Made by a program: the position numbers and the translations under genes
Shown: piece by piece, positions 15 to 24,866 of the stretch
How the letters are laid out: each line of letters opens with the position of its first letter
Numbering within the stretch: the first letter of the stretch is position 1
From: a phage
Sequence record: PZ049723.1
Length of the DNA: 44,509 bases
Strand: one strand, 5' to 3'
Notes under the pieces: model-generated
The model's input: only the letters and a program-made list of their open reading frames with translations
Told to the model about the DNA's origin: nothing
Database searches by the model: none

Positions 15-233
15 ATGAAAACTTTAATTATGATTTGTGCGGTTCTTTTGTCCGGTTGTGCCGACATGCCGTCTAAAATCTGCGACGCAACATACATGAA
101 TAGCGGCATTGATTATGCGGTCCCTGTGTATGGTGTCGCAGACTTCTCCGGGCATAAAATGCTAAGGGCGGGTTATCCGTTTAGCTTCCAGTACGTGTCG
201 GTAGACCATTTCAAAAACACCACCTGCGAATAA
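15..233 (+). CDS. Putative secreted lipoprotein; candidate receptor-blocking superinfection-exclusion protein (Cor/Llp-like by position)
   Basis: ATG at 15 with AGGAGA RBS 7 nt upstream; N-terminal signal peptide with lipobox LLSGC; 72 aa; next to the tail-tip genes but on the opposite strand; hairpin terminator follows. Confidence 0.5.
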   Translation: MKTLIMICAVLLSGCADMPSKICDATYMNSGIDYAVPVYGVADFSGHKMLRAGYPFSFQYVSVDHFKNTTCE

Positions 234-16036: not shown

Positions 16037-16065
16037 TTGCAATCATCGTATTGGTTGCATATATT
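16037..16065 (+). promoter_or_regulatory. Sigma70-like promoter with embedded TTGGTTGCA motif pair
   Basis: TTGCAA (16037-16042), 17-bp spacer, TATATT (16060-16065); TTGGTTGCA at 16051-16059 and 16065-16073; GAGGA RBS and ATG at 16095 follow. Confidence 0.45.
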
Positions 16066-16094: not shown

Positions 16095-16859
16095 ATGAGA
16101 CTGACGAAAGACATTAAAAACCAGATTCTGGCTAACATCCTGCGCGACCACGAAATCGCGACCGAAGCCAAATCAATAATGATGGACTCGCGCGACCTTG
16201 CGTACGCCATTACGCTGGACTGTATGCCGGAAGGCATTCGCACGTTCGCCGAGCTATTCGCGCACATTGAAGCAATCAGCGATGACCCGTCGCAGATGTA
16301 CGGCGTCTGCGTATACACCAACAAGGCGACGTATAGTTATAACACCGACCGCCCGAAAGGTATCGGCAGCGTTTACGACGCCACTTTCGAAATCAATGCG
16401 GGCGGAAATGTGCGCACACTGTCATTGAGCGGTGACGGACGACAATACCGAGTACATCGCGGATACTGGGAATATAAATACATGAATAAGCTATCTCCCG
16501 ATCTCGGCGATATTGTACCTGGGTACGAAGAAGTAATGCTGGCTTCTGTGTGCGAAGTGGACGAGGATGGGAAAGCGCTGCCGATCTATAAGCCGCGCTG
16601 TCGTGCAGAGTTCCCGGCGGATCATGATTTCTGCAAGCGCCTTGACCGTAACGATAAGGCCCGCCGCGATTTGCGAGCTAAGTATGACGCGTTCAAACTC
16701 ACCGTTACCGGTGTGCTGGACCTGCACAATACTGACAAGAAGCTGATTAAGGCATGGCCTGAAGTTGAGCAATTCATACCATACCCGGACAAGCAAAAAT
16801 CCACGGCGGTGGCGCTGGACGTGAAAACACTCAACGAGATTTGCGGCATTCCGCGCTAA
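16095..16859 (+). CDS. Hypothetical protein; opposite-strand moron inside the structural cluster
   Basis: 255-aa ORF with own promoter-like sequence, GAGGA RBS and bidirectional terminator; only plus-strand gene between 234 and 30437; no recognisable motif. Confidence 0.6.
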   Translation: MRLTKDIKNQILANILRDHEIATEAKSIMMDSRDLAYAITLDCMPEGIRTFAELFAHIEAISDDPSQMYGVCVYTNKATYSYNTDRPKGIGSVYDATFEINAGGNVRTLSLSGDGRQYRVHRGYWEYKYMNKLSPDLGDIVPGYEEVMLASVCEVDEDGKALPIYKPRCRAEFPADHDFCKRLDRNDKARRDLRAKYDAFKLTVTGVLDLHNTDKKLIKAWPEVEQFIPYPDKQKSTAVALDVKTLNEICGIPR

Positions 16860-16864
16860 CAAAA

Positions 16865-16893
16865 AGGGGCCATTACGGCCCCTTAATTATTTG
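16865..16893. terminator. Bidirectional hairpin terminator
   Basis: aggggcc-attac-ggcccct stem flanked by AAAAA upstream and TAATTATTTG downstream; between convergent gene ends. Confidence 0.55.
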
Positions 16894-17103
16894 CTGCAAC
16901 TCCAGCACCTGCGCCCTTAGCTTCGCCCCGCATTCCATATTTTTAACATCAATCATCAAATCTTCGTCGGGGTCCGCGGACGGGTTATCGAACTTGCACG
17001 GCGGTCGCAGTGCCGACTCCGTTAGCGGCATCAACGGCACGCTGCTTGATCCGCACGCGCTCAGCGTCAAAACTACAATCAGGGCGGTTAGGGCGCGTAA
17101 CAT
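16873..17103 (-). CDS. Outer-membrane spanin-like lipoprotein (o-spanin candidate)
   Basis: 76 aa; signal peptide with lipobox LTLSAC; Pro-rich; overlaps the 3' end of the preceding membrane-protein gene in another frame. Confidence 0.5.
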   Translation of the reverse strand: MLRALTALIVVLTLSACGSSSVPLMPLTESALRPPCKFDNPSADPDEDLMIDVKNMECGAKLRAQVLELQQIIKGP

Positions 17104-17314
17104 ATTTTACAACCTCTTTTGTGATAGTCCGGTATTCCACGTCGCGGGCTTGTTCTGCCTGCACGGAGCGCTCAATTACTTTAGTTTGCTGCCGTTGGGC
17201 TTGGGATTGCGCTTCTTGCGCCGCCTTCGCCACTACGCCAGCGCGGTAGGAGTCACCTAGCCAGAATCCTACCGCCAGACCTATAACCAGTCCAATAGCC
17301 GCATACTTAATCAC
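16985..17314 (-). CDS. Inner-membrane spanin-like protein (i-spanin candidate)
   Basis: 109 aa; N-terminal transmembrane helix then Gln/Ala/Glu-rich helical region; GTG start at 17314 with GGGGG RBS; overlapped by the lipoprotein gene. Confidence 0.45.
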   Translation of the reverse strand: MIKYAAIGLVIGLAVGFWLGDSYRAGVVAKAAQEAQSQAQRQQTKVIERSVQAEQARDVEYRTITKEVVKYVTRPNRPDCSFDAERVRIKQRAVDAANGVGTATAVQVR

Positions 17315-18410
17315 GCCATAACCCCCGGTTTTTAAGCTGTGCGATAGTCATCAGTTCGCCCGTATCGGTGAACATCTTCGGCACTTTCACGCCGCGCATA
17401 ATCTGGTCGGCGCGCTGCACTCCATATAATTCCTCCAGAATATGGCGCGGCTGGCGCTGCACCCATGAGAAGAAATCAGTCTGCGCGTCGACCTGCTCAC
17501 TCAGCAATCTGCCCGCTTCAGCCTTCAGTGCCGGACGCTTACCACTGGGCCAATCTTCCATGCCCTTAACTTTCCACGTCTCCGTCGAACGGCAGCAATA
17601 ATGCAGCTTGCCCGGACCAGCGCCATATTGTGATCCAGCCACCACTTTCCCGCCGCGTTTTCCTTTGGTGTCGGGAGTAATATCAACCGGATAAAACAGG
17701 CGATCGCGTAGCTGGCACATGGGAGAAGTATGCGTGTCCAATGTAGATAACCATTGGCGACCTTCGAGAATATCGACATTTGCTTTTACCATTAGTTCGC
17801 GGGCTGTAGCCGCATAGTGGTTGACTGCGGATTTAACAACGCTCGAGATGGCTTGCGCACTACGACCACCTAGCGCGCGCCTCACGTCCGCTATAATTTC
17901 CATAGTCGGCTTACCCTGGATGAATCCGGCGCGCACCTGATTGCCGATCTGCGTTCTGGTCCATTCTGAAAGTGAATCGGGCCATTGCATCAGGGTATTG
18001 CCCTGAAACGGGTTTTTCATTGCCGTCGCTGCGATCTGCGCACCGGTCACTACGCCAACCACCTCGACCGCAGGTACAGCGACCACCGGCTGGATCGCTG
18101 CCGTTAATGTGTCGGTAAGATAATCAGCCTCCGTGTCGGCAAACTCCTGAAGGCTTTCAGCTAACGCCTTAAACTCGGTGCGCAGTTCCGTTTTGACGGT
18201 CTTGTCCAGTTGCGTCAACAGTGTGGTAAGTGCCTTGTTACTCATGGTCTTTTTGCCATCAAGTAACTCGGTCAGCTTACCCAGTAACGTGGGCCGGAAC
18301 TTCTCCCACATAGCCAACACCCTTCGCGCCTGGTCATTACTCAGGCGCTGGGTGAAGATGTGTCGGCGGATCATTCGATCCGCCATATATTGATTAATTG
18401 TCTTCGCCAT
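17307..18410 (-). CDS. Head morphogenesis / minor capsid protein
   Basis: 367 aa ORF immediately downstream of portal, the usual position of this protein; ATG at 18410. Confidence 0.6.
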   Translation of the reverse strand: MAKTINQYMADRMIRRHIFTQRLSNDQARRVLAMWEKFRPTLLGKLTELLDGKKTMSNKALTTLLTQLDKTVKTELRTEFKALAESLQEFADTEADYLTDTLTAAIQPVVAVPAVEVVGVVTGAQIAATAMKNPFQGNTLMQWPDSLSEWTRTQIGNQVRAGFIQGKPTMEIIADVRRALGGRSAQAISSVVKSAVNHYAATARELMVKANVDILEGRQWLSTLDTHTSPMCQLRDRLFYPVDITPDTKGKRGGKVVAGSQYGAGPGKLHYCCRSTETWKVKGMEDWPSGKRPALKAEAGRLLSEQVDAQTDFFSWVQRQPRHILEELYGVQRADQIMRGVKVPKMFTDTGELMTIAQLKNRGLWRD

Positions 18411-21862: not shown

Positions 21863-21992
21863 GATATAAGCCCTTTTGTGCATATGCGCCGACCATCGGC
21901 AACATAGGAGACGGCCCTGCCATCTAATTGGGATTATAACAGGCACAAAAAAGCCCACCAAATCGGCAGGCTGGGAGGGTTACGGGTCGCCG

Positions 21993-23135
21993 TTACTTCA
22001 ACATTTCCGGGCTAATGGTTAAGCGCGCTACTTCGCCGTAGTTGGCGCTGTAGGTGATGACGTTTGCGCTGCGGCCGGACATCCAACCGCCACGACTGGC
22101 GTAGGCGTCTTTCGCTGCGAGCGTCCTGTGCTGTTCAACAATCATGTTGCGGGATTCAACAATCTTCTGGTGGTGCAAATGGCCTACGTGCGCGTAGCTG
22201 TATTCGCTCGACCCGAACGCCTGTCTGAATTTAGCGATCATAACCTGCTCGATAACATCGAATCGCGCTTTGTGCCCGTGGTGGAAGAACAGCGTTGTTT
22301 TACCGTGCTGCACCATTTTGTAGACGTCCGGGGACGTATCCACATCGACGCGCGGCTCGTTCTCATACAGAGTATTGAACATCTCCGCCAGCCAGATCAT
22401 GCCAGACTCGTCATGATTACCCTGGACGATTAGAAGTTTGACTTTGTGGTGTTTTTGCAGCGCCAGCTCCACCACGTTGCGCACCATGCGAATCATGTAG
22501 CGGACCAGCTTCTGGTATCGGGTATCCGCGTCCAGGATGTGACCGCTGGCAGGTGTGACGGCATCAAGGCTATCAAAGTGCGCCATATCACCGAGGATAT
22601 TAATTACGGCAGTGCCTGCGTCCGGTGCGCGTGCAAAGGCTTCGACAAACCAGCGGTAGAACAGGTCTTCGGCAATCGCCATATCCCAGTCCTCGCCAGT
22701 CTCCTCGCCCCAGGCCAGCATCCCCAGGTGGAAGTCTGACACGGTGTACAGGTTGAGTAGGTCAAGTGCCTGGATCGGTACTGGCGGGGAGCTTACTGGT
22801 GCTGCCGGTGTGATTTCGCTGTTCATGCCCTCGACAACGGCGCGCATTGCTTCAAGCTGGCGCTCTTTGTCCTGCTCTGTGATAACCCACGACATGACCT
22901 CTTCGCCATTGCCACGCACCAGGGCGGAGACACGCTTCACGCCGAAGCCATCGGCAACGCGCTTACGGATTACGGCATCATTACCGTGACCAATACCTTT
23001 CTTCGACAGGCGGGCTTTGCGCATGTAGACGTTTCGTAGGGAAAGGCCGTACTTCTTCGCAATCTCTTTCGCGGTAGTGCCGGATTGCAACTCGGCGATC
23101 AATTGCTCGTCGGTGATTTTAGTTTGCGGGTGCAT
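21993..23135 (-). CDS. HTH domain fused to calcineurin-like metallophosphoesterase
   Basis: 380 aa; N-terminal helix-turn-helix (TAKEIAKKYGLSLRNV); phosphoesterase motifs SDFH, GDMAHFD, GNHDE, HHGH, GHLHH; ATG at 23135. Confidence 0.7.
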   Translation of the reverse strand: MHPQTKITDEQLIAELQSGTTAKEIAKKYGLSLRNVYMRKARLSKKGIGHGNDAVIRKRVADGFGVKRVSALVRGNGEEVMSWVITEQDKERQLEAMRAVVEGMNSEITPAAPVSSPPVPIQALDLLNLYTVSDFHLGMLAWGEETGEDWDMAIAEDLFYRWFVEAFARAPDAGTAVINILGDMAHFDSLDAVTPASGHILDADTRYQKLVRYMIRMVRNVVELALQKHHKVKLLIVQGNHDESGMIWLAEMFNTLYENEPRVDVDTSPDVYKMVQHGKTTLFFHHGHKARFDVIEQVMIAKFRQAFGSSEYSYAHVGHLHHQKIVESRNMIVEQHRTLAAKDAYASRGGWMSGRSANVITYSANYGEVARLTISPEMLK

Positions 23136-23340: not shown

Positions 23341-23366
23341 ATAAAAAGCCCGGAATTAACCGGGCT
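23341..23366 (-). terminator. Rho-independent terminator after lysis-region operon
   Basis: agcccgg-aattaa-ccgggct 7-bp stem followed on minus strand by TTTTTAT. Confidence 0.6.
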
Positions 23367-23373
23367 GGTGGTT

Positions 23374-23787
23374 TTATTCTTCTGCTTCCGTTACGGTGAA
23401 GATGGCGGACGCCATTGCCCCGCTACCATCGGATGCCACCCAAAAGATGTGAGCGCTACCTGCCGTTTGGGCTGTGATTTCGCCGGTAGTCTGATCGATT
23501 GCCGCACAGGCAGGATTCGACGACACCCACTTCCCTGCCTTGTTAGTTGCGTCGGATGGCAGGACGGCAACAGAAGCGGAGGCCTTCGCACCAACTGCGG
23601 CTGACACTGGAGTGAGGGTTACGGTCGCACTTGCTACCGGCTTACTTTCTGGCACGCTAGGCAGCTTCGCGTCAAAGACGCCCGCATGGCTGATAGTGTC
23701 CGCAATAATAGCGCGTGCGCCTGGGTCTTTGGTTTTAGCCAGCGCGGCGAGCGCGTCGGCGTTATGATCAAGAATACTTTTTAACAT
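23374..23787 (-). CDS. Bacterial Ig-like (Big_2-type) domain protein
   Basis: 137 aa; Ala/Ser/Thr/Val-rich beta-rich region whose spacing resembles Big_2 domains; last gene before terminator. Confidence 0.45.
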   Translation of the reverse strand: MLKSILDHNADALAALAKTKDPGARAIIADTISHAGVFDAKLPSVPESKPVASATVTLTPVSAAVGAKASASVAVLPSDATNKAGKWVSSNPACAAIDQTTGEITAQTAGSAHIFWVASDGSGAMASAIFTVTEAEE

Positions 23788-23803: not shown

Positions 23804-24295
23804 TTATGCTGCGTTACGTCCGATCTTCTCGGCAACGTCCCACTGCTTCCCATCAAACAACGCCTGTCTGCCGATTGCTCGACGGACAAGTCCCTTCAGC
23901 ACTTCCCCGCCTTGCTTGCGGAACTGTGGCAGCGTAGCACGGACCTTCGCCCAGTCACCCAGGCGCACCGCATCATCGAAATCACCGGCTACGTCGTCCG
24001 GCATGATCGGACCAGGACCGGCATTGATTACCAGGTCCACCAGCGCGTCGAATTGCGCCTGATTGATGCTCGGGTGTGCGTACTTGTTCACCCAGTTCTC
24101 GGCATATGCCACATCGCGCTTGAGTAGCTCCAGTGCTTCCGCACGGGTAATGCTCCGCGGCGGGTTAGTGCCGGTGTGACCATAGCCCCAGGTATACAGG
24201 CCGCGGGCCTGCTCTTTCTTAGTCGCGAAATACGGCACTGGGCTGAACGCCTCCCATGCTGCCGTAAATCGTAGACCGTTGTCACTGAATCGCAT
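23804..24295 (-). CDS. Endolysin, GH24 (T4 lysozyme-like) family
   Basis: 163 aa; N-terminal catalytic pattern E..F....Y then TWGYGHTG; follows two membrane-protein genes. Confidence 0.8.
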   Translation of the reverse strand: MRFSDNGLRFTAAWEAFSPVPYFATKKEQARGLYTWGYGHTGTNPPRSITRAEALELLKRDVAYAENWVNKYAHPSINQAQFDALVDLVINAGPGPIMPDDVAGDFDDAVRLGDWAKVRATLPQFRKQGGEVLKGLVRRAIGRQALFDGKQWDVAEKIGRNAA

Positions 24296-24527
24296 GTTTT
24301 ACCCCATTCAAAACAGCATTACGCAGTGTGCGCAATGCAAACAGCCATATTAACGCGGTCCAGGTGGTATCAGATACGTCTCCGGTTTGCAACAATCCGA
24401 TAAAACAGACCATTGCCGTTAACAGATACAGCACCCGACCGAAAAAGCCATCCCGGACGGACGGCGCATACACGTTAAACAGGGACGAAGCCCCGATGAT
24501 AACAAACAACAGGACGGAGATAATCAT
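24282..24527 (-). CDS. Holin/antiholin-like small membrane protein
   Basis: 81 aa with two or three hydrophobic helices and charged C-terminus; GGGGGG RBS; overlaps endolysin start. Confidence 0.5.
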   Translation of the reverse strand: MIISVLLFVIIGASSLFNVYAPSVRDGFFGRVLYLLTAMVCFIGLLQTGDVSDTTWTALIWLFALRTLRNAVLNGVKHAIQ

Positions 24528-24814
24528 TTTGCACCCCCCGGAAGTCGGAACGACGCAATAGTCTCCCTGATCCGGTCGGCGATTGGCATCCAGAAGATGG
24601 CAGTTACGAAGCCCAAACCGGCGACAGTGCGCTCACCCGACAAACCAGCCCACTCAGCGATAGCCGGTGCGCCAAATATGGCACACAGGAAGCCAACTAC
24701 AACATACAAAACGAAGTTTAGCGGCCCCTTCGTAGCCTCACCATGAATGCGTGCGCCTACGAAGCCACCCGCCAGACATGCCAGGGCGAATAGCCACTCG
24801 TTTAGCTTATCCAT
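24524..24814 (-). CDS. Holin-like membrane protein
   Basis: 96 aa with three predicted transmembrane segments; first gene of lysis cassette. Confidence 0.55.
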   Translation of the reverse strand: MDKLNEWLFALACLAGGFVGARIHGEATKGPLNFVLYVVVGFLCAIFGAPAIAEWAGLSGERTVAGLGFVTAIFWMPIADRIRETIASFRLPGGAK

Positions 24815-24866
24815 AAAAAAGTCCCAGTAAGTTTTATCTCACTGGGACTATATCACGCTTGCATAA

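Follow-up and report, generated by a model that had tools for sequence, protein, structure and literature searches.

Two-component spanins have been tested experimentally in phages lambda, T7 and P2, and experiments on T4 and T1 have been reported as well (Kongari et al., 2018; PMC6139136). In the same survey, phages HK578, EK99P-1, EP23, JL1, SSL-2009a and SO-1 are listed under the 'Jersey' families of overlapped inner-membrane (i-) and outer-membrane (o-) spanins, the short subfamily of which has two helices, one beta motif and o-spanin cysteines conserved at two positions. Here we describe such a pair in sequence record PZ049723.1, a stretch of 44,509 nucleotides of phage DNA (hereafter 'the window'), where the gene for a membrane-anchored protein (17314..16985, minus strand) overlaps that for a small lipoprotein (17103..16873, minus strand). 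From their sequences, and by analogy with the characterized systems, these genes very probably encode a two-component spanin that disrupts the outer membrane at the end of infection. The pair has in common with the short Jersey subfamily its +1 overlap, a two-helix i-spanin, two conserved o-spanin cysteines and its genome position, with no difference of substance: the window i-spanin has 109 residues, and those of some relatives end seven residues earlier (102). Neither the pair nor its site apart from the other lysis genes is new for this phage group, as RefSeq record NC_024783 (EK99P-1) calls both genes 'Rz-like spanin' at this position, K1ind2 (GenBank GU196280) carries a 'putative spanin; overlapping gene' there, and spanin annotation is found at the same position in Pandora71 and SETP7.

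The pair found in Jerseyvirus and Kagunavirus (Guernseyvirinae; SETP7 gp08/gp09, K1ind2 ORF5/ORF6) belongs to the same family, and likewise lies between SPP1 gp7-like head-morphogenesis and scaffold genes, away from holin and endolysin. It differs in having an i-spanin of 128 residues, an o-spanin start a few codons upstream of, and not in, the Y-V codons described below, and no opposite-strand Nmad5 gene downstream. P2 LysB/LysC, the experimentally tested prototype of the overlapped +1 architecture, shares that architecture with the window pair, but was placed by Kongari and colleagues in a separate overlapped o-spanin family (PMC6139136). Our tblastn search with the i-spanin returned no P2-like phage among the matches listed. 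The P2 genes themselves sit inside the lysis cluster. With lambda Rz/Rz1, the window pair shares predicted mechanism and topology, periplasmic cysteines and the +1 frame. However, the gene for Rz1, a protein devoid of secondary structure, is contained entirely within that for Rz (PMC6139136), and the two stand at the end of the lysis cassette, whereas the window o-spanin continues for 112 nt after the i-spanin ends, and a 29-residue C-terminal helix is confidently modelled in it. Finally, T4 is the classic example in which the spanin genes lie at a distance from the holin and endolysin genes (PMC6139136), although its PseT.3/PseT.2 genes do not overlap but are separated, and their sequence family is unrelated.

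A 3-kb stretch around the spanin locus is 80–95% identical in nucleotide sequence to 158 phage records, nearly all of them from Escherichia or Shigella phages, and the records that we opened are all of the genus Dhillonvirus (HK578-like siphophages). By this similarity we assign the window to an HK578-like Dhillonvirus coliphage; since related records are 44–46 kb long, the 44.5 kb window is probably essentially a whole genome.

The original prediction had described an overlapped i-spanin/o-spanin pair, and a list of open reading frames (ORFs) confirms both genes on the minus strand at the coordinates given above. The i-spanin ORF starts with GTG, opens with MIKYAAIGLVIGLAVGFWLG and encodes 109 residues, of which the first 19 form the best 19-residue hydrophobic window (mean Kyte-Doolittle 2.0). 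Its N-terminal transmembrane helix spans approximately residues 4–20, with K3 ahead of the hydrophobic stretch and 89 mostly charged residues after it, among them the only cysteine (Cys80). A type II topology, with one N-terminal transmembrane domain and most of the protein periplasmic, is thus predicted from sequence and model. In the AF2 model a helix (residues 3–72) continues onward from the membrane segment and is followed by a loop (73–83) carrying Cys80 and a second helix (84–97), so that the modelled periplasmic domain consists of two helices and a linker, in agreement with what PMC6139136 describes for the short Jersey subfamily. At a pLDDT of 56 this model is of low confidence, and we therefore used it for secondary structure alone and made no fold search with it.

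The o-spanin ORF starts with ATG, opens with MLRALTALIVVLTLSAC and encodes a precursor of 76 residues with the lipobox LSAC. Its N-terminus has the form of a lipoprotein signal, with a positively charged M-L-R, an 11-residue hydrophobic core and L-S-A-C17 followed by G18, and the mature part of 60 residues contains further cysteines at positions 36 and 58. A signal peptidase II lipobox cysteine with no Asp at +2 is the predicted signature of sorting to the outer membrane, and a small mature o-spanin encoded within, overlapping or just after the i-spanin gene is the arrangement seen here. The AF2 model (pLDDT 82) shows a signal-peptide helix and the 29-residue C-terminal helix (residues 45–73). 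A Foldseek search with this model against BFVD gave a significant match to the SO-1 orthologue alone, other annotated o-spanins matching weakly, at uninformative E values (0.3–9).

Both proteins fall into families already annotated as 'Rz-like spanin', the i-spanin matching phrog_2536 (6.9e-36) and the o-spanin phrog_5672 (2.5e-26) and phrog_1267 (2.4e-11), in keeping with the membership of both components in the Jersey families. The check proposed with the original prediction, the application of spanin-prediction rules, came out in its favour: the i-spanin has a transmembrane anchor and a helical periplasmic domain, the o-spanin has a lipobox, both have periplasmic cysteines, and the genes overlap in the +1 arrangement. 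What is seen directly is thus a gene for a type II inner-membrane protein and a gene for an outer-membrane-type lipoprotein, overlapping in the +1 frame, conserved, and both with periplasmic cysteines.

The overlap measures 119 nt (16985..17103, minus strand). Within it, the o-spanin signal peptide and N-terminal linker are encoded in the +1 frame of the C-terminal part of the i-spanin, and the o-spanin gene then extends 112 nt beyond the i-spanin stop. This is the 'overlapped' spanin architecture as defined by Kongari and colleagues (PMC6139136). The o-spanin start site is itself written in i-spanin codons. Of the codons for the i-spanin residues ITKEVVKYV (17099..17125, minus strand), those for K-E-V (AAA GAG GTT) supply the o-spanin Shine-Dalgarno sequence AAGAGG, 9 nt ahead of the start, and those for Y-V (TAT GTT) supply its ATG. 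The same arrangement occurs in 16 of the 17 Dhillonvirus loci that we fetched (the remaining one, L018, was missed by the motif search pattern), in the more distant overlapped relatives L020–L022 and in loci with an embedded o-spanin (L023–L026, see below). Across these loci the K-E-V codons yield either AAGAGG or AAGGAG, and the ATG always comes from Y-V/A codons (tATg). This dual coding is probably part of the reason why the ITKEVVKY motif is conserved.

Short ORFs are frequent in six-frame lists, and several database records omit one gene of the pair or truncate the o-spanin, so one might suppose that either ORF, or both, is open merely by chance, for instance that the lipoprotein ORF is an accidental +1 frame. 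The pattern of conservation effectively refutes this and leaves it next to no probability. In each of 17 distinct Dhillonvirus sequences (17 of 17), both ORFs are unbroken and begin with the same codons; the o-spanin is 76 residues long in all of them and the i-spanin 109 or 102. The identity of the i-spanin is 81–97% across Dhillonvirus phages, and 95–97% to EK99P-1 and SSL-2009a by tblastn. Variable sites fall predominantly at third codon positions in the single-coding parts of both genes (45 of 80 where only the i-spanin is encoded and 22 of 39 where only the o-spanin is, the latter with just five at position 2), and it is this bias together with the intact ORFs that makes the pair more than chance. 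The o-spanin in addition has its own Shine-Dalgarno site and 189 database homologues, and in an alignment of 27 diverse homologues it retains eleven invariant residues (C17, P35, C36, D46, D48, L49, D52, C58, L62, R63 and Q70). These residues, including all three cysteines, hold among homologues down to 26% identity. As for the pair, relatives at 37–39% identity (L020–L022) have retained the +1 overlap and the lipobox along with the three periplasmic cysteines, that is Cys80 of the i-spanin and Cys36 and Cys58 of the o-spanin, which are thus maintained down to 37% identity.

The small lipoprotein could alternatively be a superinfection-exclusion or receptor-blocking protein of the Cor or T5 Llp type, with the 109-residue protein unrelated to lysis. 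T5 Llp and Cor, small lipoproteins of the outer membrane, are similar in size to the 76-residue protein, and the two conserved cysteines of its mature part would also suit a disulfide-stabilized receptor blocker. Yet the window already encodes a Cor-family superinfection-exclusion lipoprotein of 72 residues (15..233, plus strand; phrog_1119, 2.3e-26), and it was on the strength of this gene elsewhere in the window that we rejected the alternative. Moreover, in every relative the 76-residue ORF and a gene for a transmembrane protein are locked together in +1 overlap. Its homologues are found in phages and prophages of Salmonella, Klebsiella and Cronobacter, and distant relatives stand directly after endolysin genes. 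Taken together, we regard a receptor-blocking role as very unlikely. A search of the window for other spanin candidates found none, Cor being the sole other convincing lipobox ORF.

The spanin reading gains further support from the genomic setting of distant relatives that carry the ITKEVVKY motif, which directly follow endolysin and holin genes in canonical cassettes. In the window itself the spanin genes do not adjoin the holin and endolysin genes. The lysis cassette, all on the minus strand, comprises two holin genes (24524..24814 and 24282..24527) and an endolysin gene (23804..24295; Phage_lysozyme, PF00959) whose product is soluble, with no N-terminal transmembrane or signal-anchor-release (SAR) segment. 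PHROG (phrog_2359, phrog_2508 and phrog_7) and Pfam matches agree with the original prediction in placing these genes at 23804–24814 and in its claim that the lysis functions are split between two loci. Between 17314 and 23804 lie 6.5 kb, occupied by exonuclease, terminase, portal and head-morphogenesis genes and by terminator-like hairpins.

Directly upstream of the i-spanin gene is a head-morphogenesis gene (SPP1 gp7 / Mu F-like; 17307..18410, minus strand; phrog_241, 1.5e-114), followed further upstream on the same strand by homologues of portal, large-terminase and small-terminase genes, which we named after their annotated counterparts in related records. At the junction (17307..17330, minus strand), the i-spanin GTG (17314..17312) lies within 8 nt (GTGATTAA) shared with the last codons and stop of the head-morphogenesis gene, and its Shine-Dalgarno site (GGGGG) is 7 nt ahead of the GTG. 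The same 8-nt overlap is found in the Dhillonvirus phage EE09. Such an overlap, with a Shine-Dalgarno site just upstream, suggests co-transcription and translational coupling of the i-spanin with the head-morphogenesis gene.

This location among the head genes, between that for head morphogenesis and that for the scaffold, also raises the question of whether the two products are head-assembly or virion proteins, and proteomic data from EE09 bear on it. The i-spanin counterpart there is CDS34 (L027 21776-22084), a 102-residue protein encoded directly downstream of a 367-residue head-morphogenesis homologue and whose sequence is that of an i-spanin; we identified it from the GenBank record, the supplementary tables of PMC10673088 carrying no CDS labels. 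CDS34 was detected by mass spectrometry as one peptide (12% coverage) in the 82,000 g pellet of a crude lysate (PMC10673088), so the i-spanin ORF is translated. The same pellet held lysin, terminase and phosphoesterase (PMC10673088). It was thus not a clean virion preparation and gives no evidence of virion association; membrane fragments would co-sediment. In addition, capsid proteins have neither an N-terminal membrane anchor nor a lipobox, and both PHROG and the literature assign the two proteins to the spanins. On these grounds we rejected a virion role, which appears highly improbable.

Several points nonetheless weigh against the identification of the pair as spanins. The EE09 authors considered CDS34 'very likely' structural from its genome position (PMC10673088). 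A Pfam-A scan of both proteins gave no match at E <= 0.1. The i-spanin is a short one (about 89 residues in the periplasm), and confidence in its AF2 model is low. Finally, our literature search found no genetic or biochemical test of any member of the Jersey family. Set against the evidence above, we infer by analogy that the pair works like Rz/Rz1 while not being a sequence-level member of any Pfam spanin family.

If the pair is indeed a spanin, its mode of action can be sketched from established spanin biology, using lambda Rz/Rz1 as summarized in PMC6139136. The 109-residue protein would be held in the inner membrane by its N-terminal helix, with its helical domain reaching into the periplasm, while the 76-residue precursor would be lipidated at Cys17 and sent to the outer membrane, a destination predicted because Gly, not Asp, follows the cysteine. 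The periplasmic domains of the two proteins would then bind each other, and the complex would bridge the periplasm through the peptidoglycan mesh. Periplasmic cysteines of spanins serve homotypic intermolecular disulfides (PMC6139136, section 12), and Cys80 of the i-spanin and Cys36 and Cys58 of the o-spanin may stabilize the complex in this way. Once the two holins had released the soluble endolysin and the wall had been degraded, the spanin complexes would be freed to destroy the outer membrane, probably via its fusion with the inner membrane. As for expression, the spanin genes would be the last cistrons of a late transcription unit that includes the terminase, portal and head-morphogenesis genes and ends at the hairpin 16864..16884 (below), with the i-spanin start coupled to the head-morphogenesis stop codon. 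Standing last in this unit, the spanins would accumulate with late gene expression without adjoining the holin and endolysin genes.

The spanin identification has practical consequences for annotation. In many Dhillonvirus and Jerseyvirus records one or both genes are 'hypothetical', or the o-spanin is truncated, and one proteomics paper took the i-spanin for a structural protein owing to its gene position. Correct spanin calls are also relevant to phage therapy and to the engineering of lysis timing. As to the form that the errors take, many annotations of the o-spanin begin at an internal start (47–52 residues), so that signal peptide and lipobox are lost. Examples are EK99P-1 gp06 (L001 10051-10209), SETP7 gp09 (L003 6291-6434), P0098, P0107 and others (48 residues), and PHROG 5672 (47 positions) likewise covers just residues 32–76. 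Elsewhere one of the two genes is left out altogether, as in the records of Pandora71 and EE09, the latter lacking the o-spanin (CDS33).

The family to which the pair belongs appears to extend beyond overlapped genes. Searching IMG/VR with the i-spanin led us to distant relatives with long i-spanins of 155–181 residues (L023, L025, L026), and their sources are uncultured phages and Deefgea and Chitinibacter prophages (L023, L025, L026, L028–L034; IMG/VR, Logan and ENA). These relatives were drawn from metagenomic and prophage data, a tblastn search of the long i-spanins against GenBank phages having given few and weak matches. A profile of the long i-spanins recovers those of Dhillonvirus (E 1e-9 to 1e-7 in 5.8 billion sequences), and the long i-spanins also match phrog_2536 (~1e-13). 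In several of their loci an endolysin gene lies upstream, in L025 together with a holin gene. All ten of the long-i-spanin loci examined have a +1-frame lipoprotein ORF of 51–73 residues embedded in the i-spanin gene, and the N-terminal half of the o-spanin profile matches these embedded o-spanins (E 4e-5 to 7e-3 in 3,581 ORFs). In four of the five loci measured, the distance from the o-spanin ATG to the end of the locus is much the same, whether overlapped (231 nt in the window, 240 in L020) or embedded (236 in L023, 239 in L026), but it is 275 nt in L025. That overlapped Jersey pairs and embedded pairs form one family with a shared o-spanin start site is therefore well supported by the sequence comparisons.

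What differs between the two architectures is the reading frame of a C-terminal module consisting of a cysteine and a helix. This module is in the i-spanin frame in 10 of 10 embedded loci, whereas every overlapped locus checked has it in the frame of the o-spanin, and it is present once per pair in the loci checked. Its consensus is D.DL..DV.N.EC.RQLRLKVYRLQDWIRN in one setting, against DA.DAL.VVT.NYE.C..WR..LIGWQ.WY in the other. In hhalign comparisons, the o-spanin module (columns 56–93) aligned at the top with the C-terminus of the long i-spanins (133–170 of 176) with a score of 23.7 (P 0.0019), a score attained by none of 997 valid column shuffles; three further shuffle runs scoring ~131 were discarded as suspected file artefacts, the cause of which is unverified. 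For 25 of 27 long i-spanins, the best match of a profile hidden Markov model (HMM) of the o-spanin module lay at the very C-terminal end, in register. In contrast, HMMER gave no significant match in either direction: the full o-spanin HMM reached only E ~1–7 against the long i-spanin C-termini (3,581 ORFs), and the best non-self matches of the i-spanin C-module HMM were the o-spanins of L020–L022 at E ~1. HMMER alone thus does not establish homology of the module, and we regard the homology of the modules of the two architectures as suggestive only.

With this caveat, we lean slightly towards a frameshift that moved the module from one subunit to the other and so links the embedded and overlapped forms. 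A net one-base shift would have moved the break-point between the subunits of a periplasm-spanning complex. Kongari and colleagues found no family bridging embedded and overlapped spanins and proposed parallel evolution from separated genes (PMC6139136), and that survey was the sole return of our full-text literature search for spanins, frameshifts and embedded or overlapped architectures. Were the transfer to be borne out, this would be the first family to bridge the two architectures, and the published view of independent origins would be revised. It would also show clearly, in a natural case, that a frameshift within overlapping genes can move a functional module between the subunits of a complex, and would explain the conservation of the i-spanin's most conserved motif, which encodes its partner's ribosome-binding site and start codon.

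Two other kinds of gene arrangement came to light among these relatives. In P0097 (159 residues) and P0073 (108 residues), the N-terminal part of the i-spanin (to ...NRTVC.FD) is joined directly to mature o-spanin sequence. Both belong to the L020-type (Cronobacter/Salmonella prophage-like) subfamily, and could be natural frameshift fusions, pseudogenes or sequencing errors. In L024 (2821-3412), a 170-residue i-spanin has the ITKEVVKY motif and no recognizable C-terminal module. Its o-spanin is 100 residues long, extends 79 nt past the i-spanin and has a different cysteine-containing C-terminus, and the pair comes directly after a cell-wall hydrolase gene.

Downstream of the spanin pair, a GC-rich terminator-like hairpin (16864..16884, both strands; AAGGGGCC-attac-GGCCCCTT) is common to the converging o-spanin and Nmad5 genes. 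Read on the minus strand it has nine pairs followed by TTTGTT, a good T-run, and on the plus strand eight pairs followed by AATTATTT, a weak T-run. The hairpin thus scored as terminator-like on both strands, and the bidirectional terminator of the original prediction stands. The same cannot be said of its description of the neighbouring gene as a moron. This gene encodes a 254-residue Nmad5-domain protein (16095..16859, plus strand; PF18757, 4.1e-58; phrog_1965), lies between the spanins and the scaffold gene, and has a promoter-like site of its own (16037..16065, plus strand; promoter scan). It is annotated in all three Dhillonvirus records inspected, so it is not a variable moron, and has no counterpart at this spot in Jerseyvirus or Kagunavirus.

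Three other terminator-like hairpins, all on the minus strand, lie upstream of the pair. One precedes the first holin gene (24849..24820), one stands before the small-terminase gene (21972..21952), and one (23366..23347) follows the gene for an Ig-like protein and sets the lysis cassette apart from the exonuclease-to-spanin genes downstream. Between cassette and terminase genes, the last two of these hairpins (23366-23347 and 21972-21952) bracket the gene for an exonuclease / calcineurin-like phosphoesterase of 380 residues (21993-23135, minus strand; phrog_704, 4e-161). The gene for the Ig-like protein, which has 137 residues and a Big_2 domain, comes immediately after that for the endolysin and is not within the structural module (23374-23787, minus strand). 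In EE09 the homologue of this protein (CDS40) was among those detected in the lysate pellet, at 28% coverage, and the protein may be a capsid or tail decoration protein.

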